Below are positions 6,214-26,197 of a stretch of DNA of 64,000 nt, in pieces (the stretch's first letter is position 1; each line of letters starts with the position of its first letter). The DNA lies in the NCBI GenBank assembly GCA_963804955.1, contig CAWDSQ010000016.1, positions 64,001 through 128,000 on the forward strand, in the 5' to 3' direction. This DNA comes from an uncultured delta proteobacterium (GTDB lineage: Bacteria; Desulfobacterota; WTBG01; CAIYCZ01; CAIRTM01). The notes under the pieces are model-generated. The model was not told where the DNA came from. It ran no database searches and saw only the letters and a list, made by a program, of their open reading frames with translations. Made by a program: the position numbers and the translations under genes.

Positions 6214-7203
6214 TTAGCCGCCTATTGCCGACATGGTTCTGCTGCATTTTTTATAGGTTGCTTCGCGGATTTCATGGCGCTGTGGCTTTGAGAGAATGGC
6301 CTGTTCGATGACGGCGCTCAGCTCGTCGTCGCAGCAGCCGCTCCGCAGCAGAGGCTTTAAGTCGATTTCATCATCGGAGAACAGGCATGCCCGGAGCTTG
6401 CCGTCGGCCGTGAGCCGCAGCCTGTTGCAGGTTTTGCAGAAATGGCTGCTCAGTGCCGTGATGAACCCGAGCTTGCCCTGCGCCCCTTCCAGCTGAAACA
6501 TTTTTGCCGGGCCGGCTTTTTCGTCGGCCTCAAGCGGGATGAGCGGCCCCAGCGCGCTGATTCTGTTCTGCAGTTCTTCGCTTGAAATGAACTGCGCTTC
6601 TTCCCACATGGTCTGGCCTGCTACGGGCATGAACTCGATGAAGCGGATATGCACCGGCCGGTCCAGGGTGAGCCGTGCAAATTCGACGGCCTCGTCGTCA
6701 TTGACATTGCGCATGGCAACCACGTTTATTTTGATGGGGGCAAAGCCTGCCTCGCGGGCTTTGCGGATGCCGGCAAACACGGCATTGATATCGCCGCCGC
6801 GGGTGATTGTTCTGTATTTCTCCGGGTCAAGGGTGTCGAGGCTGATATTGATTCGCCTCATGCCGGCCCGGTACAGCGCCTCAGCGCATGCTTCCAGCAG
6901 CACCCCGTTGGTGGTGAGGGAGAGCTCTGCTATGCCGGAAATCCCCTTCAGATCCCCGACAAAGTCGATGATGCCCTTGCGCACCAGGGGCTCGCCACCG
7001 GTGATCCTGATTTTGGTTATGCCTTTTTCAGCCGCGCTGCGGGCCACGCGCAGGATTTCCTCGTAACGCAGTATCGCGTCATGACCCATGGGCGAAATAC
7101 CCTCCTTGGGCATGCAGTAAATGCAGCGCAGGTTGCACCTGTCTGTCACCGAAATGCGCAGGTAGTTTATATGGCGGTTGAAGGTATCAAGCAGCTTCGG
7201 CAT
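6214..7203 (-). CDS. moaA: GTP 3',8-cyclase (molybdopterin biosynthesis)
   Basis: YLRISVTDRCNLRCIYCMP, ITGGEPL, FCKTCNRLRLTADGKLRACL and C-terminal MSAIGG. Confidence 0.97.
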   Translation of the reverse strand: MPKLLDTFNRHINYLRISVTDRCNLRCIYCMPKEGISPMGHDAILRYEEILRVARSAAEKGITKIRITGGEPLVRKGIIDFVGDLKGISGIAELSLTTNGVLLEACAEALYRAGMRRINISLDTLDPEKYRTITRGGDINAVFAGIRKAREAGFAPIKINVVAMRNVNDDEAVEFARLTLDRPVHIRFIEFMPVAGQTMWEEAQFISSEELQNRISALGPLIPLEADEKAGPAKMFQLEGAQGKLGFITALSSHFCKTCNRLRLTADGKLRACLFSDDEIDLKPLLRSGCCDDELSAVIEQAILSKPQRHEIREATYKKCSRTMSAIGG

Positions 7204-7252: not shown

Positions 7253-7281
7253 CTGCATGCGCATAGACAGCGGTCATACCC

Positions 7282-7378
7282 GTCTCCTTCCCAAATCCGG
7301 GAGGCGCGGCCGTCGCCGGCCGTACCCTGTCGGTTAGACCTCCTGCGCTACTGGCGCAGGCTGAATAACTCCAGAGAC
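7282..7378 (-). ncRNA. Moco/Tuco RNA motif (riboswitch candidate) lacking P3, i.e. tungsten-cofactor type
   Basis: Minus strand GTCTCT-GGAG[P2]TAACC-GAC-AGGGT[ACGGCCG-GCGA-CGGCCGC]GCCT-CC-CGGATTT-GG-GAAGGAGAC. Has the hallmark GCCTCCCG..TTTGG.AAGGAG and a GNRA-capped P4, and sits upstream of moaA. Confidence 0.88.
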
Positions 7379-7391
7379 TTTCTTCACTTAA

Positions 7392-14658: not shown

Positions 14659-14901
14659 CTACTCGGCCAGAACGGGAAGCAGATAATTAAAACCGTTTTT
14701 GACGGCTTCTTTAGCCTGCTTGCCGCTGATGACCTTCTTCTTCTCAAGATAGTTGACAAGCTTTTCATATCCTTCCAGCAAAATGCGGCGGTGGGTCTTT
14801 TCGTCGACCACGTTCTTGTCTTTCAGATAATCCAGAACGTCGAGCGTCTTGTCGTCTAGGTCTATGAACTTCTTGGCCTGCGCCTGTGTCATGATTGCCA
14901 T
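14659..14901 (-). CDS. 80-aa hypothetical protein, last gene of the AOR operon
   Basis: AAAGGAGA RBS then ATG 14901: MAIMTQAQAKKFIDLDDKTLDVLDYL...; fused to AOR in the ORF track only through a frameshift. Confidence 0.75.
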   Translation of the reverse strand: MAIMTQAQAKKFIDLDDKTLDVLDYLKDKNVVDEKTHRRILLEGYEKLVNYLEKKKVISGKQAKEAVKNGFNYLLPVLAE

Positions 14902-14927
14902 AATATATCTCCTTTCGCTTATCAGAA

Positions 14928-16678
14928 TTAATAGTAGTATTTTTGTTTTTTCTTTCCAGCGTCGGACATATACTTCGGCTCTGAGCGGAGCGAGGTCTTT
15001 TGCAACGTAGTCAAGGCCGAGCATCTTCAGTCTCTTTTCCGAGGGGAAGCCGGTCTTGGCATCCCAGTCACGATACTTGTAGTACTTTTGCAGCATATCG
15101 TTGAGCGGGAAAACGACGCCGACGTTGGTCTGATAGTCCACGCCCTGGGGCATGGGCTCTTTGAGGAAACGCTCGGGAACCGTATCCTCGCGGGCGCCGG
15201 ACATGCAGCGCGTCCAGTACGCTCGTCCAAGCTGGAAAATACGCTCGCCGATCTCCTGGAACTCTTCCTCGGTGAAGTCAAGGCCGCGGTGCAGGCGTTC
15301 AGGTACTCTACCTGATCGGGGGTAAGCACGGCGTATGACCAGTGCGTGGTGAAACAGCACACCTGGGAACGGTGACTTTGTGTAGCCTTCTGGTTTTCTT
15401 CGTCGAGCAGTGCGGGCTTGTTGGCAGTCGTGGTGGGCTTTGCGCCGCGCTCGTAGCCGAGCAGCTTGGTGTTCAGGCCCGTGTACAGAGCGCCTGAAAG
15501 CTCGCAGCGAGCACAGTGAACGAAGATGATCGCAGCCGCCGCGGGTGCCCTGCGCAAATGACAGGCCGTAGCCGAAACCAAGGCCGCGGGGGTCATCGCC
15601 CGGCAGCGTCATGCCGCGGGTTGTGATGCTGTAATAGTGCGCATCTTGGGGCAGGCCCAGTTTGTCGGCAGCACGGTCTGCGCCTTCGGCAAGAATTGCG
15701 CCGAAGCCTTCTCTTTTTGCTATCATGGGGATAAGCTTATCCATAACCTCTTCATTACCCCATTCAAGCTCAAGACCAGCCAGTTCCTGGTGGTGATGAA
15801 GCCTCTCTGATACCATTCCATGGCAGTCGAGATAACACCGCCGCACTCGATGGCATCCATACCGTAATCATTGGTCAGCCGGGCATTGTGCCAGATATCG
15901 TTGGCGTCTTCGATGATACCGCAGCGAGCATGCGTGCTGGGGAACTGCATGCTCGTATTCGGGACCGCCGAACTCTTCACCTGCCCATTTGCCTTCCTGA
16001 TCTGCGTGAAACGGCCGCAACAGATGGGGCATGAAAAGCAGCCTTCGCGGTGCTTCAGCACGGTGGCGGCGATACCCTTCAGATTCTTGGAGCCGATAAC
16101 GCCGCCCGTGCCGGTACGGCCTGCAGCCCGCCAAACGTCATTGAAGGTACAGGCAAAACGCACCATGTTCTCACCTGCGGGGCCGATCAGCATGATGTGA
16201 ATGTCCTCGTCCCCGAGCTCTTCCTTAATCATCTGGTCCGCCTCGCGGGGGAACTTGCCCCAGAGGTGGCGGGCGTCGCGAATCTCGACCTTGTCGTCAT
16301 CGATCCAGATATACACGGGGTTCTTTGCCTTGCCCTGAACGATGATCTGGTCATAGCCGGCGAACTTTACTTCTGCGCCCCAGTGGCCGCCCATGTTGCC
16401 GAATCGCCGAAGCCGCCCGTGAGCGGGCTTTTGCAGGAAACGGTCACGCGGCCCGTTGAGGGGGCTGCGGTGCCGCTGATCGGGGCCCATGCCGAAGCAG
16501 ACGCGCGCTTCGGGATCATAGGGATCCAAGGTGCGCGGGCACCTCGTTATAGATTACGTCTGAATTGAAACCACGGCCGCCGATCCATTTGCGCCGGTAC
16601 TCATAGGAAAGGGGCTCTTTCTTGATTTCACCTGTGGTGAGATTAACTCTGAGTCTTTGTCCTGCCCCATCCGTACAT
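14928..16678 (-). CDS. Tungsten aldehyde:ferredoxin oxidoreductase-family (WOR) catalytic subunit 1; many frameshifts and an apparent internal deletion
   Basis: MYGW.G..LRVNLT, GGHWGAEVKFAGYD, IGPAGEN, AAGRTGTGGVIGSKNLKGIA, CFSCPICC, GGPEYE, DDPRG...TRGGCDH, DTVPERF and YYKYRDWD. Confidence 0.9.
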
Positions 16679-16680
16679 AA

Positions 16681-17187
16681 TTAGGCCTCCTCTCCAACAC
16701 TTAGCGGCTTTAAGTCGTTCTTCCAGTTTTTCTCTGCGCTTGGCCTTGAAGGCGACGGTCGGCGTCGTGTAGGTAGATGGCGCCGCTCGGGCACCAGTCG
16801 GCGCAGACAGGGGCCTTCGGCCCGGCCTTCGCACAGAGTCGCACTTGAAGGCTTTGCCGGTTTTATAGTGCATGTTGATGGCGCCGAAAGGGGCATGCCA
16901 TCGCGCACTCTTTGCAGCCGATGCACTTATTGGCATCGATTTTGGTGATTCCTGCCGCGGCGTCCATGGCGCAGGCGCCGGTGGGGCACACATTGGCGCA
17001 GCGGCGCGTCGGTGCAGGCGTCGCAGCCCACGACAAAGGACTCGCCGAATCTCTCGTTACGAACACATGCGATGCGGGAAACCACCTTGCCGCATTCGCC
17101 GTCATGATACAGGGAACACCCTACGACGCAGCTTCTACAGCCGCTGCATTTTTCCTGGTGGTACACCAAGACTTTTTCATTGCTCAT
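16681..17187 (-). CDS. 4x[4Fe-4S] small subunit (DmsB/WorS/AorA-like); frameshifted
   Basis: CSGCRSCVVGC, CDACTDAP.C..VCP, CIGCKECAMACPF and KAFKCD. Confidence 0.9.
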
Positions 17188-17324
17188 GTCAGTTACCCTC
17201 CTTTCAAAGGGATCAAAAAAAAGAAACTCTAGCCAGTATTGCCTTTAGTTTCCGGTTCCCCCACGGGAACCGTCGGTGAAAAAAAACACCTCCTTTCATT
17301 TTTTTTATTTTTTACAGAAACTCC

Positions 17325-17445
17325 AAAAAAAAGCCTGAAGGCACAGCTGTGCCTTCAGGCTTCCTTTGCAAAATTGGCGGGCCAAGCACACTGCTTGAGC
17401 CTTATCGAGTCCGCTTTAGAGCGGACTCGGAAGTCCTTAAAGTAT
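17325..17445 (-). ncRNA. Candidate variant Moco/Tuco-like riboswitch with overlapping terminator, copy 1 (AOR operon leader)
   Basis: AGGACTTCC-GAGTCCGC-TCTAAA-GCGGACTC-GAT-AAGGC-TCAAGCA-GTG-TGCTTG-GCCC-GC-CAATTTT-GC-AAAGGAAGCCT, continuing into GAAGGCACA-GC-TGTGCCTTCAGGC-T8. Confidence 0.7.
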
Positions 17446-17717
17446 GAGCATGTTTAATTACTTTTTTATGACGCAGAAGTCAATGGTTTTTTCACAACTT
17501 AGAAGGAGGTATATTTCAGCCTGATCAGCACCCATGCCTGTCCATCCAACCCGGGTATCGCACCCGCAAAAGCTCTGTTTGTCGTCATATGTTTTTTTGC
17601 TGCGCAGCTTACATCCTTTCTCTCTGTCCAGCCTTTCGGGAAACCTGCCACAGGCTGATAGCTGGCAGGCTTCATTAGAAGCGGCTTTTATGCAGTGTAT
17701 TTGTCTTTTTTTTCAGG

Positions 17718-18674
17718 TCACTGCTTTTCCTGCTGCAGTTTGCTGTCTGCCATTGAATCCAGGATGGCGACATCGGCTTTTTCGCGGAGCGCGTCGGTGA
17801 ACGTATGGAGAAGCGCCACTGAGCACATTTCATAGAGCCTGGCCTTCAGATCTTCTTCAATCAGCTCAAAGGGCCGCTTCCTGCCGCCCTCAATAATGGT
17901 CTTCACCATAAGAACATGCAGGCCTTCATCGGTTCGGATCACGCGGGAAATCTCGCCTTCCTTCATGCGGAAAGCAATGCCGTCAAGGATCGGATGAAAC
18001 TGGCCGGGCGTGACAAAGCCGAGGTTTGCGCCCTTGATCTCAGTGCCGTTCAGAGAGCCTTCGGCAGCGACTTTCTCGAAAGCCGCAGGGTCTGCAGCAA
18101 GCTTTTCAAGCTCCTGACGCACTTTTTTCTCTTCGGCGGGGTCGGCATAGCGGTCCAGCCTCTGCATGACGTGCAGCACGTTACGGACCTCGGGCCCCTG
18201 CATTTCATCAGGATGCTCATCATAATACCGCCGCGCCTCCTGCGAGGTCACGGGCTTTCGCTTGCCCTCCACGGCTGAAGCTGCGGTTTTATTTATTATG
18301 ATATCTTTCTGCACCTGGTCGCGGAACTCCGCCGGACTCAGCCCCGTCATCACGAGCATGGCCTTGAACTGCTGCTCGCTGTCGAATTCGGCAATCGAGC
18401 CGGCGGTCACCGTGGCAATTTCCTCATCCGTGGCGGCAATGCCCGTGCGGCAGCCTTCCTGGTACAGCAGCTCCCGCATAACAAGCTTATCGATCGCATG
18501 CTTGCGGGCAGCATACATTTCCTGCTGCGGCAGGCGCACTTTGCCCTTGCTGTCCTTGTACGGATCAAGCAGGGTCTGCAGGGCCGCTGCCACCTGGTAT
18601 TCGCTGATAACAACGCCATTGACCCGTGCGACAGGGGTCTTTTTTTGAGCTGGATTAATTGTATTTTGTTCCAT
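17718..18674 (-). CDS. SurA/PpiC-type peptidylprolyl isomerase, no obvious signal peptide
   Basis: VARVNGVVI, SurA-N helices, NLGFVTPGQF and ISRVIRTDEGLHVL. Confidence 0.8.
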   Translation of the reverse strand: MEQNTINPAQKKTPVARVNGVVISEYQVAAALQTLLDPYKDSKGKVRLPQQEMYAARKHAIDKLVMRELLYQEGCRTGIAATDEEIATVTAGSIAEFDSEQQFKAMLVMTGLSPAEFRDQVQKDIIINKTAASAVEGKRKPVTSQEARRYYDEHPDEMQGPEVRNVLHVMQRLDRYADPAEEKKVRQELEKLAADPAAFEKVAAEGSLNGTEIKGANLGFVTPGQFHPILDGIAFRMKEGEISRVIRTDEGLHVLMVKTIIEGGRKRPFELIEEDLKARLYEMCSVALLHTFTDALREKADVAILDSMADSKLQQEKQ

Positions 18675-18997: not shown

Positions 18998-20296
18998 TCA
19001 GGCGCCTGTCCTTGACACAAACCCGCTCAACTGGTTAACCACAGGGAGAAGCTGCGTCTGAGGCTTTTTGATAAATTCTTTCCACGGCGTCTTTCCGACA
19101 ATAGCACCCCGGACAATGCCTGCTCCGTCCACATTGCCGACAGCCATAAAAGAAACAGGGATGCCGTCTTTCAGCTTTACCTTCTGGTAGATGCTATGAC
19201 TCTTAAAGGTGACTTCTTCAATGTCATCACCCTCTGTCTGAACATCGCCGATAGCAGTTATCCACATCTCGTAGAAGTCAACGCTGTTCATGGGGATATT
19301 GCCCTCATAGGTCCTCTGCTGCCCGGACATGTTGCACGCTGCGATTCTTCCCTGCGCTGCCGCCACTGGCCAGATGGCATTGTATATCCATTCCTTGCTG
19401 ACTATATGACGCGAGCGGCATACATCTCCTGCAGCATAGACATCCTCAACCGTGGTACGCTGGCAATCATCAACAGAGATTATCCGGTCCACCTTAACAT
19501 CTGTGCCTTCAAGAAAGTCCGTGTTTGCTTTAACACCAACAGAGGCAACAATAAAATCAGCTTCTTCTTCTCCGCCGTTTTTATACGTCACAACATACTT
19601 ATTTCCCTGTTTCCGCGTGTCAATAACAGAATTGTGAAGCTCAATATCAAGCAGTTCATGCCGGGTCATCCGTTCCCGAACCCGGGCGCTTGCCTCAAGA
19701 TCAGTCATGCGGCCAAGCACTGTTGGCAGCAGCTCGACTACCTTGACCTGCACTCCCTGCTTCACAAGACCATATGCTGTTTTCAGCCCGACAAATCCTG
19801 CGCCGATAATAATTGCTTTTTTACCCTTCTTTGCCCAGCCTTTCAGTTTGTTTGAATCATCATAATTCCTCATCCCTATAATACCTTCCGGGTCATAGGG
19901 GAAGCTTTTGAGAAAAATGGGTGATGAGCCTGTTGCTACAAGCAGGGTATCATAAGAAATCTTTTTCGTTCTTCCATTCTGTTTTGCATAGACAATCCGG
20001 TTTTTAGCATCGACTTTCTCAGCCCGGGTAGAAAGGTTCAGGTCTATATCACGACCAGTGTACCATTTTTCAGAATGTGACAGAAGGTGGCTCCGGGTAA
20101 CCATACCGCCAAGATAATAGGTAATAAGGCACCGTGAATAAGAGGGCACCGCCTCTTCACCAAGAATAACAATTTTATCTTCAGGATTCAGTGTCCGCAG
20201 AGTATCTGCCGCGGTAACAGCTGCAATGCAGTTACCGATAATAACATGCTGCCGCGCACTTTTTTTTACTTTGGTTTTATTGGCCTGTATTTTCAT
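18998..20296 (-). CDS. FAD-dependent NAD(P)H oxidoreductase (NirB N-terminal / AorC-like)
   Basis: VIIGNCIAA, LLVATGS, IIGAGFVGL and VYAAGDV. Confidence 0.9.
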   Translation of the reverse strand: MKIQANKTKVKKSARQHVIIGNCIAAVTAADTLRTLNPEDKIVILGEEAVPSYSRCLITYYLGGMVTRSHLLSHSEKWYTGRDIDLNLSTRAEKVDAKNRIVYAKQNGRTKKISYDTLLVATGSSPIFLKSFPYDPEGIIGMRNYDDSNKLKGWAKKGKKAIIIGAGFVGLKTAYGLVKQGVQVKVVELLPTVLGRMTDLEASARVRERMTRHELLDIELHNSVIDTRKQGNKYVVTYKNGGEEEADFIVASVGVKANTDFLEGTDVKVDRIISVDDCQRTTVEDVYAAGDVCRSRHIVSKEWIYNAIWPVAAAQGRIAACNMSGQQRTYEGNIPMNSVDFYEMWITAIGDVQTEGDDIEEVTFKSHSIYQKVKLKDGIPVSFMAVGNVDGAGIVRGAIVGKTPWKEFIKKPQTQLLPVVNQLSGFVSRTGA

Positions 20297-20772
20297 CTTC
20301 GTGTTATCCCCCGTATCTCTTTTATTTTTCTATTTCTTCTTTTTTTCACTGTCGTGCTAAAATCATCAAAAAACAGAGCTTCCCTGTCGCATACGGCAAC
20401 GCAGGGAGGATTATCTTTTTCTCCGCAAATCAGCGTGCACTTAAAAGCTTTTTCAAGGCTCATAACCGTCTTTATTGCTCCATGGGGACATACCATGTTG
20501 CACATAAAGCACCCAATGCACCTTTTTTCATCCTGAATAATAATTCCATCGTTGCCGCACTTCAGTGATTCACCAATGCAGGCATCCACGCAGGGTGTGT
20601 CTTCGCAGTGCTTGCACAGGCGAAGGAAAGGCCCCTGCGGGCTCTGGTACACTTTGATAAATGGTGCATACCCGGCAGAGTCGCTGCTTGATTTGCTGCA
20701 TTGTGCAGAGCAGGCGACTTCGCACTGGCGGCACACATCGCACTTATCAGGTCTAAAAACAAATGCTTTCAT
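20293..20772 (-). CDS. 4x[4Fe-4S] protein (CooF/AorA-like)
   Basis: CDVCRQCEVAC, CKHCEDTPCVDAC, CIGCFMCNMVCP and KCTLIC...PPCVAVC. Confidence 0.9.
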   Translation of the reverse strand: MKAFVFRPDKCDVCRQCEVACSAQCSKSSSDSAGYAPFIKVYQSPQGPFLRLCKHCEDTPCVDACIGESLKCGNDGIIIQDEKRCIGCFMCNMVCPHGAIKTVMSLEKAFKCTLICGEKDNPPCVAVCDREALFFDDFSTTVKKRRNRKIKEIRGITRR

Positions 20773-21415: not shown

Positions 21416-22207
21416 TTATTTCGCCATATCCCTATGGGAAAACTTTTGAGTGAGGTTGCGCCTTCGGCATTTCACGCACACATCTTTAAAGTCATCGGAT
21501 AAGTCTTTCAGCTTTCTGTGCACCTCATTTATGAGTGGCTCGGGTGCGACAACCTCTCCGCATATTCTGCACGTATGAAGCTCCACCGAAGTCTGCGACC
21601 AGGTTTCAACTGTCCGTGTGCCTTTCCTGTCGGAAATTTTTATTAATTTTGTCGGGCATACATCCGCGCATGCCGTACAGCCAAAGCATGTATCGGAAGG
21701 CTCCTGGTAGGCAGTGTTAACCCTTGTTTCCGGGCCGCGAGAGATAAAGTTTATAACCCCGGCCCCCACCGCCTCATTACAGACACGCACACACAAGCCG
21801 CAGAGCACGCACTTTTCTTCGGGTGCGCCCTTCTTTTTCTCCTCTTTGCGGGCAAAGCGGGACTCGGTGATACCGTATTTTGCCGCCATTTCCCTGATAT
21901 GATCAGAGTCAGGCGCCTCAGCAAGATAGAGCTCCATGAGGCCTTTCCTGATACCCCTGATTTCCGCAGTATCCGTTTTTACCTCAAGGCCCTCACTTGC
22001 TGCAAGGGTGCATGACGTAGTCATGCCCTTTCTGCCGCCAGCCACAACCTCTACCATGCACAGCCTGCATGCGCCAAAGGCGGCAAGCGCCTCATGATAG
22101 CAGAGGGCCGGAATGTCAATGCCTCCGCTTTTTGCAGCTTTAAGCACCGAGTCACCCTGCTCGGCCTGAATTTTTTTTCCATCAATAATAATTGTTACAT
22201 TCTTCAT
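21416..22207 (-). CDS. [2Fe-2S]/[4Fe-4S] subunit (NuoG/HydA N-terminal-like, no catalytic domain)
   Basis: IPALCYH, GACRLCMVE, TSC, CVLCGLCVRVC, CFGCTACADVCP and a C-terminal CxxC...CxxC. Confidence 0.88.
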   Translation of the reverse strand: MKNVTIIIDGKKIQAEQGDSVLKAAKSGGIDIPALCYHEALAAFGACRLCMVEVVAGGRKGMTTSCTLAASEGLEVKTDTAEIRGIRKGLMELYLAEAPDSDHIREMAAKYGITESRFARKEEKKKGAPEEKCVLCGLCVRVCNEAVGAGVINFISRGPETRVNTAYQEPSDTCFGCTACADVCPTKLIKISDRKGTRTVETWSQTSVELHTCRICGEVVAPEPLINEVHRKLKDLSDDFKDVCVKCRRRNLTQKFSHRDMAK

Positions 22208-22214
22208 AACGGTA

Positions 22215-25200
22215 TCAACCTTCTTTCACATCACATCGTAAGCATCGGGTAACTTCCACCCTGGCTACATCAGGGGGATAGCACAGGGTAACTTCATCAA
22301 AGCTGCATCGTCGTGCTTCAGGGGAAACCATGGGCATGGGATTACGGTTTCCTCCCTGGGGCTCAACTGAAACCTCATTGTTGTACCTTACTTTCTTCAA
22401 CAACTCGCTTAGCCGGTCTTTGCCGGTAAGCTTTTTGTCAACAGCCATGGCAAACCTCTTGCCCTGTCCCATGGCGCCGCTCACCGTTAAAGGACCGGTC
22501 ACAAGATCGCCCCCGGCATACACACCGGAGATATTTGTTTCAAGGGTGAATGGGTCTACGGCAATAGTGCCGTTGCGGTTCAGTGTGACACCAATCCTGC
22601 CGATAAAATCAGAATCACACACCTGGCCGATGGCGGCAATTACCGTGTCACAGTCATAGGTGATTGTCTCATTATCGGACACCGGCACCCTCCTGCCTGC
22701 AAGGTCATAGTCACCGGGCCGCATCCTTGTGACAATAATGCCTTTTACCCTGCCGCTGCGTGCGAGTATTTTATGCGGACCAACAAGGGTCACAATCTTA
22801 ATTCCTTCTTCCTCTGCCTGGCTGATTTCTTCTTCTTCTGCAGGCATATCAGCCTTTTCGCGGCGGTAGAGAATGGTTACATCAGCGCCGAGGCGCTTTG
22901 CTACACGTGCTGAATCCATTGCCACGTTTCCACCGCCGATGACCACGGTTTTAGCCCCTACGGCAACATCTTTGCCAAGATTGACATCGCGGAGAAACTC
23001 AACGCCGCTCAGCACGCCCAGTGCTTCCTCGCCCTGAACCCGAAGCGGACTTTCTTTCTGGGCGCCGATGGCAAGAAAGATCGCATCATGCTCCTTTTTA
23101 AGCGTCCGCAGGTTCTTATCCCTGCCAACGGTTGTATTAAATTTAAAGGTAACTCCAAGCTTCTTAATCAGCTCAACTTCCTGATTCACCACCTTCTTGG
23201 GAAGTCGGAATTCCGGAATACCCCAGGTCAGCATGCCGCCGGCTGATGGACAGGCATCATACACCGTGACTTTATGGCCAAGCCGGGCAAGGTAGTATGC
23301 AGCGGTTAGGCCTGCAGGTCCTGCACCCACGATACCTATCTTTTTACGGGTTGGTTTTAACTTCCGCGGCTCAACCTTCCGCAGTTTCTTTGCCTTTCCG
23401 TTGTTAAACATGTAATCAGCAACAAACCGGTGAACTTCCCGCGTGGAAACCGTATCATCAACCTCATTGCGTCTGCACCTGCCCTGGCAGGGATGATGGC
23501 ATACGCGACCCGTGCTTGCCGGAAGGGGATTATCCTGAAGGATGAATTCATAGGCATCGGCAATCCTCCCTTCCTTGAGAAGGGTCAAATACCCGGGAAT
23601 GTTCATGTTGATCGGGCAGGCATTTTCACAAGGCGCAACAAACAGGCTTGCGCATGCTCCTGCCTGGCACCGGTTGTTCCTGATATGGTTTTCATATTCA
23701 TTCTTAAAATATCTAAGTGTCGTAAGAACCGGGTTTGGTGCGCTCTGGCCCAGACCGCACAGGGACGTTTTTTTAATAAGATTGCCGAGCTCCTCAAGTA
23801 CGGACAGATCCTCCATCTTCCCTTTGCCGTTGCAGATGTCAGTAAGAAGGGCAAGCATATGCTTGAGGCCTTCCCGGCAGGGTGCGCACTTGCCGCAAGA
23901 CTCTTCCTTGGTAAAATCAACAAAGTAGCGTGCCGTGTCAACCATGCAGGTGTCTTCATCCACCACAACCACACCGCCGGATCCCATAATGGAGCCAAGC
24001 TTTGTCAGGCTTTCATAATCAATTGGTGACTCAAAGTATGGCGCGGGAATACAGCCGCCAGATGGGCCTCCTGTCTGCACTGCTTTAATCTGCCGGCCCT
24101 CTACGCCGCCGCCGCCGATGTCATACACAAGGGTCTTCAATGACGTGCCGAAAGCAATTTCAGCAAGCCCTGCCTGGCTTATTTTGCCGACAAGGGAGAG
24201 CACCTTGGTGCCCTTGCTTGTCTCGGTACCGGTCTGGCTGAACCATGCCCCGCCCCGGGATATAATAACGGGGATATTGCACCAAGTCTCAACATTGTTG
24301 ATGTTTGTTGGTTTACCCCAGAGGCCTTTTTCTGCGGGAAACGGTGGGCGGCTACGGGAGCGGCCGGCAAAGCCCTCTATGGAGGATATCAGGGCTGTTT
24401 CCTCGCCGCACACAAATGCGCCGGCGCCTTTCACCATAATAATATCAAAAGAGAAGCCTGAACCGAGTATGTTTTTCCCCAGGAACCCATATGCCCGCAG
24501 CTGCTTAAGCGCATTCTGCAGCCGCTTGATTGCCAGCGGATATTCTTCGCGAATATAAATGATGCCTTCACTTGCCCCGATTGCATATGCGCCGATGATC
24601 ATACCCTCTAGCAGCATGCACGGGTCGCTTTCCATTTCATTGCGGTTCATATAGGCGCCGGGATCGCCTTCATCAGCATTGCAGATGATATATTTCTTTT
24701 CCCCTGCGGCATTGCGGGCAAACTTCCATTTCTGGCCCGTCGGGAAGCCTGCGCCGCCTCGTCCGCGAAGCCCTGCTTTAAGCACTTCATCAATAATCGC
24801 TTCAGGGGTCATAGCCGTGAGTGCTGTGTGCAGGGCTGAGAATCCGCCAACACCAATATACTCATCAATATCTTCAGGGTTGATAAACCCCGTATTTCTC
24901 AAAATAATCTTTGTCTGCTTTGAGAAAAACGGCACGTCGGCATAGGCCGTGATGTCGGCAAAACCTTTGCCATACTCAAGGACTGCGCCTTTTGTAATGT
25001 GATCCCATCTCTCAACCCGGCAGAGGGCTTTTTCCCGGCAGACATCATTTTTGACAAGCTTGTCAAGTATGGCCTTTGCATCTTCGGGCACAACACCTGA
25101 ATAAATAATCATCGGCATATCAGGAATGCTTACATTTACCAGGGGCTCCCTGGTGCAGTAGCCGATGCAGCCAACCTTGGTAAGCACCACATCAAGCTTT

Positions 25201-25373
25201 CTGCTCTTGATCTCTTCTTCCAGCGCGCGCATCACTTTATCTGCGCCTGCGGCAATTCCGCAGCTGGCGTAGCCCACTGCAATTCGGGGCTTTCCAGGGA
25301 AAATCTTCTTTAACCCTTCGTCTTTAATCTGCTTTAGATATGCTTGATGATGTAGTTTCACTTTTCTTCCCAC
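22215..25373 (-). CDS. NuoF/HydB-like FMN-NADH subunit fused to a GltD-like FAD/NADPH domain
   Basis: LRGRGGAGFPTG, CNADEGDPGA, GAGAFVCGEET and ESCGKCAPCREG, then PCENACP, GAGPAG, GGGNVAMD..YRR and RCLRCD. Confidence 0.93.
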   Translation of the reverse strand: MGRKVKLHHQAYLKQIKDEGLKKIFPGKPRIAVGYASCGIAAGADKVMRALEEEIKSRKLDVVLTKVGCIGYCTREPLVNVSIPDMPMIIYSGVVPEDAKAILDKLVKNDVCREKALCRVERWDHITKGAVLEYGKGFADITAYADVPFFSKQTKIILRNTGFINPEDIDEYIGVGGFSALHTALTAMTPEAIIDEVLKAGLRGRGGAGFPTGQKWKFARNAAGEKKYIICNADEGDPGAYMNRNEMESDPCMLLEGMIIGAYAIGASEGIIYIREEYPLAIKRLQNALKQLRAYGFLGKNILGSGFSFDIIMVKGAGAFVCGEETALISSIEGFAGRSRSRPPFPAEKGLWGKPTNINNVETWCNIPVIISRGGAWFSQTGTETSKGTKVLSLVGKISQAGLAEIAFGTSLKTLVYDIGGGGVEGRQIKAVQTGGPSGGCIPAPYFESPIDYESLTKLGSIMGSGGVVVVDEDTCMVDTARYFVDFTKEESCGKCAPCREGLKHMLALLTDICNGKGKMEDLSVLEELGNLIKKTSLCGLGQSAPNPVLTTLRYFKNEYENHIRNNRCQAGACASLFVAPCENACPINMNIPGYLTLLKEGRIADAYEFILQDNPLPASTGRVCHHPCQGRCRRNEVDDTVSTREVHRFVADYMFNNGKAKKLRKVEPRKLKPTRKKIGIVGAGPAGLTAAYYLARLGHKVTVYDACPSAGGMLTWGIPEFRLPKKVVNQEVELIKKLGVTFKFNTTVGRDKNLRTLKKEHDAIFLAIGAQKESPLRVQGEEALGVLSGVEFLRDVNLGKDVAVGAKTVVIGGGNVAMDSARVAKRLGADVTILYRREKADMPAEEEEISQAEEEGIKIVTLVGPHKILARSGRVKGIIVTRMRPGDYDLAGRRVPVSDNETITYDCDTVIAAIGQVCDSDFIGRIGVTLNRNGTIAVDPFTLETNISGVYAGGDLVTGPLTVSGAMGQGKRFAMAVDKKLTGKDRLSELLKKVRYNNEVSVEPQGGNRNPMPMVSPEARRCSFDEVTLCYPPDVARVEVTRCLRCDVKEG

Positions 25374-25840
25374 TCATATTGTTTCAGAATTTCAGGTAGT
25401 TTTTTAGGCGTTAAATAGCCATAAATAGTGCCGTCAACCATCATCACCGGCGCAAGACTGCAACACCCGAGACAGCGGGTGCTTTCAATCGTAAACAGCT
25501 TGTCATCGGTTGTGATTGACTTTTCATTTCTTTCTTCATGCCTAATCTTTAAAAGATCAAGCATGGCAGCCTTAAGCCTTGGCCCGCCTCGAACATGGCA
25601 ACTTGTACCTTCACAAACGGTGATTATGTGCTTACCCCGGGGTTTCAGGCTGAAGGCAGCATAAAACGTGCAGACGCTGAAGAGCTGAGAAAACGGAACC
25701 CCCATCTTCTCCCCCACATACTGCATTGCTTCTTTTGGCACATACCCTTCCTCTTCCTGAATTGCCTCCAGTGTGGACAAAACCTGCCCGGGCATATCCA
25801 CATACTGCTCAATAATTTTATCCAGTTTTCTTGCATCCAT
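25358..25840 (-). CDS. NuoE/HydC-like [2Fe-2S] subunit
   Basis: VCEGTSCHVRG and RCLGCCSLAPV. Confidence 0.93.
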   Translation of the reverse strand: MDARKLDKIIEQYVDMPGQVLSTLEAIQEEEGYVPKEAMQYVGEKMGVPFSQLFSVCTFYAAFSLKPRGKHIITVCEGTSCHVRGGPRLKAAMLDLLKIRHEERNEKSITTDDKLFTIESTRCLGCCSLAPVMMVDGTIYGYLTPKKLPEILKQYEWEEK

Positions 25841-26078: not shown

Positions 26079-26197
26079 AAAAAAGCCTGAAGACACATCC
26101 CGATAATCTTCAGGCTTCCTTTGCACTATGGCGGGCCGGATATCTATCCGGCCTTTTCGGCCCACACCTAAAGGAACTCAGAAATCCCTATAAAGTA
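26079..26197 (-). ncRNA. Candidate variant Moco/Tuco-like riboswitch with overlapping terminator, copy 2 (nuoE-like operon leader)
   Basis: AGGGATTTCT-GAG[P2]CC-GAA-AAGGC-CGGATA-GA-TATCCG-GCCC-GC-CATAGT-GC-AAAGGAAGCCT, continuing into GAAGA...TCTTCAGGC-T6. Confidence 0.7.

Follow-up and report, generated by a model that had tools for sequence, protein, structure and literature searches.

What kind of RNA stands in front of a tungsten-enzyme operon in an uncultured delta proteobacterium, and in which direction would it control the genes behind it? The question is raised by a leader on the minus strand (17325-17445) of a 64,000-nucleotide (nt) stretch of DNA, hereafter the window (assembly GCA_963804955.1, contig CAWDSQ010000016.1, positions 64,001 to 128,000; GTDB lineage Desulfobacterota, WTBG01, CAIYCZ01, CAIRTM01). 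A first-pass annotation, made from the letters of the window, had described it as a candidate aptamer resembling those for the molybdenum or tungsten cofactor (Moco/Tuco), wired as an ON switch before an aldehyde:ferredoxin oxidoreductase (AOR) operon and belonging to no family that it recognized. By alignment of its relatives, the leader is a divergent member of the Moco/Tuco riboswitch class RF01055 and not a new family. It carries a swapped base pair in helix P5, lacks helix P3 and the tetraloop receptor, and is probably a transcriptional ON riboswitch.

Architecture, recurrence and class of the leader

The leader is a four-helix RNA (P1, P2, P4, and P5) with a strong terminator directly behind it. 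P1 is formed by AGGACUUCC (17437-17429) and GGAAGCCU (17364-17357) and has 8 bp, including G-U pairs and one mismatch. Its 5′ strand is followed by GAG, the P2 hairpin (17426-17409), and the junction (U)CGAUA (J2/4, 17408-17403). P4 (17402-17379) is closed by an A.C pair and two G-C pairs, and its loop, AGUGU, is not of the GNRA type, as the first-pass annotation had remarked. P5, GC-CAAUUUU-GC (17378-17368), is followed by AAA (17367-17365) and by GGAAG of the P1 3′ strand; the conserved AAA can also pair with the U-tract. The terminator is a perfect hairpin of 14-16 bp, AAGCCUGAAGGCACAG/CUGUGCCUUCAGGCUU (17362-17333), with U8 at 17332-17325, and its 5′ arm takes over the AAGCCU of the P1 3′ strand. 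The whole leader folds with -61.2 kcal/mol (z -7.4) and the terminator by itself with -30 kcal/mol (z -6.6), while the aptamer cut before the terminator reaches -38.0 kcal/mol (z -4.8) and folds unaided into P1, P2, P4, and P5. Upstream lie TTGACT (17483-17478), a 17-nt spacer, and TAATTA (17460-17455). Since homologous leaders (loci L005, L029, and those of the L018 type) retain the arrangement TTGAC(T/G)-N17-TAAT.., a promoter at this site is plausible. All elements that had been listed for the leader, from P1 to the promoter-like motif, are present in the sequence.

Related RNAs are frequent in the same lineage. Of 17 genomes in the GTDB family, 14 had matches in a DNA search, with several in each. 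Alignment A1, made with MAFFT from 26 copies, has the consensus GGUUUCCGAG-[P2]-CCGAUAAGG-[P4]-CCCGCC-NUNUUUGC-AAAGGAAGCCUG. When the proposed structure is laid over A1, pairing holds in 86.2% of cells and both sides have changed in 11 pairs, including five of the six P2 pairs and five of the nine P4 pairs; none of 500 shuffles reached the observed values, and sliding the partner by one column reduced pairing to 49% or less. The covariance model R1 was built from A1, and 39 distinct copies were fitted to it as alignment A2, which leans towards the structure by construction; here, 87.9% of cells pair (48% or less after sliding) and 15 pairs have changed on both sides. The outer P5 pair is swapped from C-G to G-C in all 39 distinct copies of A2, a change that keeps the pair and is compensatory, as had been proposed, and the base of P4 is A.C in 38 copies and A-U in one. 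The subtype is thus marked by the absence of P3, the absence of a tetraloop-receptor contact, P1 UUCC/GGAA, and an outer P5 pair G-C.

Within the order, R1 found 38 matches at 51.7-82.3 bits in 18 of 21 genomes and in both families, separated by a gap from eight matches at 42.6 bits or less. Matches that strong were confined to the order among the 42 genomes of the class and a phylum sample of 151. An exact-pattern scan of one genome per species (185,579 species) found 45 loci, 23 of which (24 matches) are full copies, all in metagenome-assembled genomes labeled Thermodesulfobacteriota, "delta proteobacterium," or "Proteobacteria." The other 22 loci, from Streptomyces, Saprospiraceae, Clostridia, and others, looked coding, had neither the 5′ half of the motif nor a terminator, and were dropped by eye as chance. 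The homologs and covariation for which the first-pass annotation had called are accordingly on record, and on sequence evidence the swapped-P5 RNA is a distinct recurring subtype in one uncultured Thermodesulfobacteriota order.

Some copies are unusual in number or in sequence. Tandem variant pairs, each copy with its own terminator, stand before a single AOR operon at L118 (1361-1434 and 1501-1575), at L145/L148 (G053:C49), and at L195 (30-141 and 238-331). At L032 (1448-1529; G000:C5:146291-146372), a copy with a degraded core (UUACCAG, GACCGCG, GGAAGUAUG) and an R1 score of 51.7 bits lies before an apparently intact AOR gene.

The relation to RF01055 is best seen in sibling copies. At gathering thresholds, an Rfam scan of the window gave a single match, RF01055 (cut-off 36 bits), at a canonical copy before moaA (Table 1), and the gene orthologous to this moaA at L078 carries Radical_SAM and Mob_synth_C. 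In 20 sibling loci, the model gave seven matches to variant copies at 37.2, 32.2, 31.9, 28.6, 23.4, 22.9, and 20.2 bits, of which only the first (L009) exceeds the cut-off; the remaining copies in these loci had no match at E up to 10. The Infernal alignment of L009 to the RF01055 consensus places UUCCGAG, CCGA.AAGG, CCCGCC..UUUGC, and AAAGGAA column by column on the conserved junction (..CCGAG.., ..CCGA.AGGG.., ..CCUCCC-loop-UUUGG AAAGGAG..), in agreement with the element-by-element mapping of the first-pass annotation. The consistent departures are AAGG for AGGG, CCCGCC for CCUCCC, UGC for UGG, and GGAA for GGAG. As in RF01055, P1, P2, P4, and P5 surround one multi-helix junction with covariation support; P2 runs directly into CCGAUAAGG without a P3, and AOR or formate dehydrogenase (FDH) genes lie downstream, as in the P3-lacking "Tuco" form. 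The GNRA tetraloop on P4 that docks into a P2 receptor is missing from the order's copies, in which P4 loops are variable and non-GNRA and P2 is a short hairpin without a CCUAA-type bulge. P3 is likewise missing from canonical copies in the same genomes; in the family, these score 38-82 bits with RF01055. All 17 genomes of the family have RF01055 matches (81 in total), and at least five of these matches are variant copies.

Several other assignments were discarded. Weak Rfam matches of the candidate (NrrF, psm_mec, and microRNA families) all arise from the terminator hairpin, and Moco-II (RF01713) had no match in the window scans or in the 20 sibling loci. The A.C at the base of P4 does not define the variant, as canonical copies elsewhere carry AAGG..CCCCCC (L139, L141, and L143), and a P3 suspected in long canonical copies proved to be extra length in P2.

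Published RNAs lead to the same assignment. Regulski et al. (2008; PMC2408646) divided 176 Moco RNAs by the presence of P3, proposed the 58 without it as Tuco sensors, and linked the P3-less RNAs to tungsten-enzyme genes; most members have a GNRA loop on P4 and a receptor in P2, and rare members have no receptor. In their supplementary alignment, the Moorella RNA Mth-1-1 (followed by HybA, COG2414 [AOR], MoaD, and NirB) and the D. reducens RNA Dre-1-1 (followed by COG2414 [AOR]) both show CUUCCGA.. and CCUGC..GCAAAGGAAG with a terminator directly behind. The P1/P5 signature with its adjoining terminator is likewise present in Figure S10A of the supplementary information to a study of Eubacterium limosum (PMC11725836), which called five P3-less RF01055 copies of that organism "Tuco riboswitches" and treated them as one class. 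The novelty that the first-pass annotation had claimed at the level of a family is therefore lost, both because siblings match RF01055 and because such RNAs have been in print since 2008.

Wiring of P1 and terminator, and the genes behind the two subtypes

Each full leader was folded from the aptamer to the U-tract, and P1 was counted as captured when at least 4 of the 8 nt of its 3′ strand lay in the downstream hairpin. By this measure, the P1 3′ strand is inside the terminator in 38 of 39 minimum-energy folds, the exception being L032, and in all ten swapped-P5 copies of other families. The terminator stem and the helix of the ligand-bound aptamer are incompatible, as the first-pass annotation had said of this leader. 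Since P1 and terminator exclude each other, termination should fail when a ligand holds P1, as in an ON switch. In canonical copies of the same family, the terminator is downstream of P1 and detached from it, and both form together in the fold of 9 of 20 leaders; among the 11 that remain, some (L001 and L002) pair the P5 segment CCCGUGG with the terminator 3′ arm CCACGG, which in these predicted folds is the usual antiterminator arrangement of an OFF switch.

The two subtypes also differ in the genes behind them. Tabulating these genes, as had been suggested, placed 33 of the 39 variant copies directly before AOR-family or FDH genes: 23 precede a 167-aa 4Fe-4S protein and an AOR-family enzyme, four an AOR alone, and six a Tat-signal FDH of the selenocysteine (Sec) type, as judged below. 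Two more precede an Fe-S protein with a FAD/NAD oxidoreductase, two a NuoE-like protein with a NuoF/GltD-like protein, and two reach the contig end and could not be assessed. Behind 32 canonical copies, where ten sets of genes were checked with Pfam and the others classed by N-terminal likeness, stand xanthine-dehydrogenase-type subunits (nine), moaA (six), a ModA/TupA-like binding protein (five), Porin_O_P (four), a MoCF_biosynth protein (four), a NiFe-hydrogenase small subunit (one), and, with no terminator, a different AOR clade (three).

The same division is found outside the order. The phylum sample holds 58 RF01055 or R1 matches beyond the order, two low-scoring ones (L197 and L198) being set aside as doubtful. 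Ten have the swapped P5 (YGCC..GCAAAGGA) with UUCC/GGAA or a close form, and all ten precede AOR (7) or FDH (3) genes; the letters of their terminators differ (AAAGGAAGAG../..CUCUUCCUUU), yet the hairpins are still built on the P1 3′ strand. The 46 canonical copies outside the order precede AOR or FDH genes in four cases and otherwise MoeA, MoaA, MoaC, MoaE, binding proteins, a porin, a TonB-plug protein, NAD-dependent aldehyde dehydrogenases, NiFe-hydrogenase small subunits, and unknown genes. In Firmicutes, three WOR1 leaders (E. limosum, Moorella thermoacetica, and Faecalicatena) have the swapped P5 and five tupABC, fetABC, and focA leaders do not (PMC11725836, Figure S10A); the Moorella leader is labeled "WOR1 M. 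thermoacetica (transcriptional)" there.

Some of the associations concern single gene families. Canonical P3-less Moco RNAs stand before NAD-dependent aldehyde dehydrogenase (Aldedh) genes at L158, L163, L164, and L179 and before NiFe-hydrogenase small-subunit genes at L161, L178, L181, and L088. With swapped-P5 copies before AOR and FDH genes in the same genomes, this looks like cofactor-dependent swapping of alternative enzymes. Porin_O_P outer-membrane genes lie under canonical Moco RNAs at L079, L090, L092, L100, and L187 and may encode molybdate or tungstate porins. In the FDH genes behind the variant (L018, 2199-2257; L006, L010, and L011), a single TGA lies in frame beneath a weak SECIS_3 match (33.3 bits; the cut-off is 63), and the gene products are probably selenocysteine enzymes by this sign.

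The reading that we favor, and hold to be likely, is that of a transcriptional ON riboswitch of the Moco/Tuco class, of a P3-less, swapped-P5, receptor-less subtype, before a tungsten-enzyme operon. From the arrangement of the leaders and their genes, we infer which ligand is bound, that it binds directly, and in which direction the genes are regulated in vivo. Transcription would start a few nucleotides upstream of P1. When no ligand is bound, GGAAGCCU would pair downstream, the hairpin of 14-16 bp with its U8 would form, and transcription would stop. When a metal-pterin cofactor is bound, the junction and the 8-bp P1 would be held, the base of the terminator would be unable to form, and RNA polymerase would read into the Fe-S/AOR operon. 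The ligand would most likely be the tungsten form of the cofactor, or a pterin form shared by the maturation of AOR and FDH. As readthrough would need bound cofactor, apo-enzymes would be made only when cofactor is available. A single signal, the availability of tungsten cofactor, with opposite outputs fits the regulon best: tungsten enzymes would be switched on, and synthesis, uptake, and alternative enzymes would be switched off.

Several observations weigh against this reading. The terminator (-27 to -30 kcal/mol) is far stabler than an 8-bp P1 with G-U pairs and a mismatch, so that P1 would need a kinetic advantage to win. The promoter-like motif is where the first-pass annotation had seen it, but a consensus scan for promoters and terminators lists neither a promoter-like site, TAATTA being outside its -10 rule, nor the minus-strand terminator. 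A 451-nt scan that admitted E values up to 10 gave no RF01055 match for the window copy as assembled, and a genome-wide scan (150 of 310 candidates scored) also found none there and three elsewhere; three extra assembly letters in the aptamer are probably responsible for the missing match. Copies in related genomes are not independent, nor are tandem copies, and the support is smaller than the counts suggest. AOR or FDH genes are also found behind canonical-type RNAs (3 of 32 in the family, 4 of 46 elsewhere), and hence tungsten-enzyme genes do not require the variant. In the supplement of PMC2408646, two Thermus copies with a swapped P5, the only further true G..C swaps there, precede modA. 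For E. limosum, WOR1 transcript levels were unchanged under tungsten limitation, and its swapped-P5 WOR1 leader was proposed to act on translation (PMC11725836). Direct ligand binding has been shown for no member of the class, Moco and Tuco being unstable (PMC2408646).

The strength of the terminator also suggests that the RNA could be a relic or a passive structure, its terminator being constitutive (an attenuator or the end of an upstream transcript) or protein-controlled and its fold not ligand-sensing. The near identity of GCCUGAAGG..CCUUCAGGC in many copies might then reflect recent duplication instead of constraint, and the degraded core of L032 still lies before an AOR gene. We nevertheless judge such a relic to be very improbable: conservation of the junction nucleotides extends over two families and to more distant lineages, with covarying helices, the terminators of other families rest on the P1 3′ strand despite their different sequence, and position and gene context are consistent in all 37 assessable copies.

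A harder question is whether the swapped-P5 subtype recognizes another ligand than the canonical P3-less copies of the same genome. The variant might, for example, bind the tungsten cofactor selectively and canonical copies Moco or a shared precursor; alternatively, the variant might sense a different maturation state. Two sharply separated subtypes occur together in 18 genomes with almost disjoint gene sets; the P5 swap lies in the conserved core beside the AAA junction, is fixed in the 39 copies, is seen again in Firmicutes and in further Thermodesulfobacteriota families, ahead of AOR/WOR or FDH genes, and goes along with loss of the tetraloop-receptor contact. However, the variant controls both AOR and FDH genes, and AOR carries a tungsten bis-pterin without nucleotide whereas FDH carries a bis-molybdopterin guanine dinucleotide cofactor. 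One ligand with opposite outputs accounts for the regulon equally well, the swap preserves a base pair and may leave the geometry of the pocket unchanged, and the Thermus copies before modA do not fit. Targeted literature searches found no ligand-bound structure of a Moco/Tuco riboswitch, which was also counted against a change of ligand. On balance, a different ligand seems rather unlikely.

It is similarly a speculative proposal, which we would not expect to hold in full, that swapped-P5 receptor-less RNAs form a separate specificity class of RF01055, a tungsten-cofactor-selective ON riboswitch that is part of an enzyme-swap regulon with canonical OFF copies. If so, tungsten cofactor would turn on tungsten AOR/WOR and FDH and turn off cofactor synthesis and uptake, xanthine-dehydrogenase-type molybdenum enzymes, NAD-dependent aldehyde dehydrogenases, and a NiFe-hydrogenase subunit, and a subtype present in at least two phyla would have been filed with the canonical form since 2008.

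Whichever ligand is bound, the favored ON reading bears on a class that has been defined so far by genetics and comparative genomics alone, and in which the presence or absence of P3 is the only feature proposed to discriminate between molybdenum and tungsten cofactors. Here, genomes whose RNAs of this class are all P3-less contain two cleanly separated subtypes that are wired in opposite ways and whose gene sets hardly overlap, and canonical and variant copies form a simple, testable pair of aptamers that differ at few core positions. ON wiring would explain how strict anaerobes couple costly tungsten enzymes (AOR/WOR and FDH) to cofactor supply. Most copies of the subtype are below the Rfam cut-off and are thus missed by genome annotation. 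In the sections consulted, PMC2408646 describes repression and sorts RNAs by P3 alone, leaving the P5 swap unnamed and ON logic undescribed; PMC11725836 names no P5 subtype and describes no ON logic; and Sun et al. (2013; PMC3766115) discuss neither an ON-type Moco/Tuco riboswitch nor a P5 subtype. A description of either was not found in the literature searched, which did not extend to subscription journals, and within that scope the recurring swapped-P5 subtype is not singled out.

Single-letter insertions and neighboring genes

Comparison with the ortholog L005, whose genome belongs to the same genus, shows about 16 single-letter insertions in the window from 17455 to 16399. Those at 17421, 17408, and 17399 fall within the aptamer, and those outside it break the Fe-S and AOR reading frames. 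Together with the missing RF01055 match of the window copy, they suggest that riboswitch and operon could be truly decayed in this strain, a pseudo-riboswitch before pseudogenes. However, all changes in this interval are insertions, which is unusual for natural decay, and other genes of the assembly are split in the same manner while their orthologs are intact (a ModA-like protein and a FAD-binding subunit; L001 and L002; G000:C16, approximately 130-134 kb). Contigs of four other public runs, compared over 16600-17520, lack nine of the insertions: 17399, 17408, and 17421 are absent from every covering contig (2 of 2 in run X1 and 1 of 1 in run X3), 17002 and 16665 likewise in every run with cover, and 16887, 16809, 16774, and 16696 from at least one covering contig, although some contigs keep them. 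None of the public runs contains more than 0.16 of the sampled words of the stretch, as would be expected if assembled letters were wrong; because of this low share, no habitat is claimed. Genuine decay is thus improbable. As the letters are absent from contigs of other runs and from intact orthologs, the extra letters of the window copy and the frameshifts of the operon are, from these comparisons, most likely assembly errors, and any frameshift or "pseudogene" in this genome is to be treated with care.

The operon behind the leader contains, by Pfam, a 4Fe-4S protein and an AOR-family enzyme, the latter as the first-pass annotation had assumed. AFOR_N and AFOR_C were found on open reading frames (ORFs) 15723-16529 and 14659-15846, and the AOR ortholog, beginning MYGWAGQRLR.., is intact over the 290 aa compared. 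Contigs of metatranscriptome run X2 cover 16623-16773 and 16962-17208 of the Fe-S/AOR operon at 90-99% likeness, and the leader is uncovered; environmental expression would be consistent with this but is not proved by it, and nothing follows for where the RNA starts or ends. A second variant riboswitch lies upstream, and the operon behind it extends down to the AOR operon on the same strand (Table 1). Its partner genes may belong to an electron-bifurcating WOR-type complex like that of E. limosum, by analogy with the legend of Figure 1 in PMC11725836. A gene for a SurA-like peptidyl-prolyl isomerase (17718-18674, minus strand) stands between the redox-partner genes and the AOR leader.

Table 1. 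Features of the window around the two swapped-P5 leaders and the canonical comparison copy.
Feature	Position	Strand	Evidence
Promoter-like element, inferred	17455..17483	-	Read from sequence; recurs in homologous leaders
Aptamer, P3-less swapped-P5 Moco/Tuco subtype	17356..17437	-	R1 63.4 bits; fold; P2/P4 covariation; siblings align to RF01055
Three extra letters in aptamer, probably assembly errors	17399..17421	-	Absent from L005 and from covering contigs of X1 (2/2) and X3 (1/1)
Intrinsic-terminator hairpin and U8	17325..17362	-	Fold -30 kcal/mol; P1 overlap conserved in 38/39 copies
4Fe-4S protein gene (167 aa in orthologs), broken by insertions; low end approximate	16660..17187	-	Pfam Fer4; L005 intact, Fer4_11
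AOR-family gene (tungsten-type), at least two frames; ends approximate	14659..16676	-	AFOR_N, AFOR_C
Second variant riboswitch with own overlapping terminator (copy at 26111-26188)	26079..26188	-	R1 66.4 bits; terminator overlap
NuoE-like gene behind second copy	25358-25840	-	Pfam
NuoF/GltD-like gene (1052 aa) behind second copy	22215-25373	-	Pfam
Fe-S genes (2Fe-2S/4Fe-4S; Fe-S) behind second copy	21416-22207, 20293-20772	-	Pfam
FAD-oxidoreductase gene behind second copy	18998-20296	-	Pfam
Canonical P3-less Moco RNA, comparison copy before moaA (6214-7203)	7268..7388	-	RF01055 38.5 bits; MoaA-like ORF

Comparison with known systems

The closest described RNAs are the P3-less Moco RNAs of PMC2408646, which share with the variant the P1-P2-P4-P5 junction without P3, the conserved CCGAG, CCGA.A.GG, and AAAGGA, and the location before genes for enzymes with a tungsten cofactor. 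Relative to the P3-less form of RF01055, the variant has an outer P5 pair G-C, P1 UUCC/GGAA, and A.C (once A-U) instead of G.U at the base of P4; in the order's copies, P2 is short and receptor-less and the P4 loop is not GNRA. The terminator makes use of the P1 3′ strand, and most copies fall under the Rfam cut-off. The Tuco riboswitches of the E. limosum type are also P3-less RF01055 members before WOR (AOR-family) operons, with swapped-P5 WOR1 leaders, but their hosts are Firmicutes and their P4 retains a GNRA-type loop, GCAA (PMC11725836). Moco-II (RF01713), a candidate cis-regulatory RNA described by Weinberg et al. (2010; PMC2864571), resembles the variant in the link to Moco genes from which it was named, and differs in that its model has no match here.

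For the wiring, the nearest parallel belongs to another class altogether. The pbuE/ydhL adenine riboswitch of Bacillus subtilis is a transcriptional ON type whose terminator overlaps the P1 3′ strand. There, as proposed for the leader of the tungsten-enzyme operon, a ligand-stabilized P1 and the 5′ arm of the terminator are mutually exclusive; aptamer class and ligand are unrelated, and the overlap here covers GGAAGCCU.

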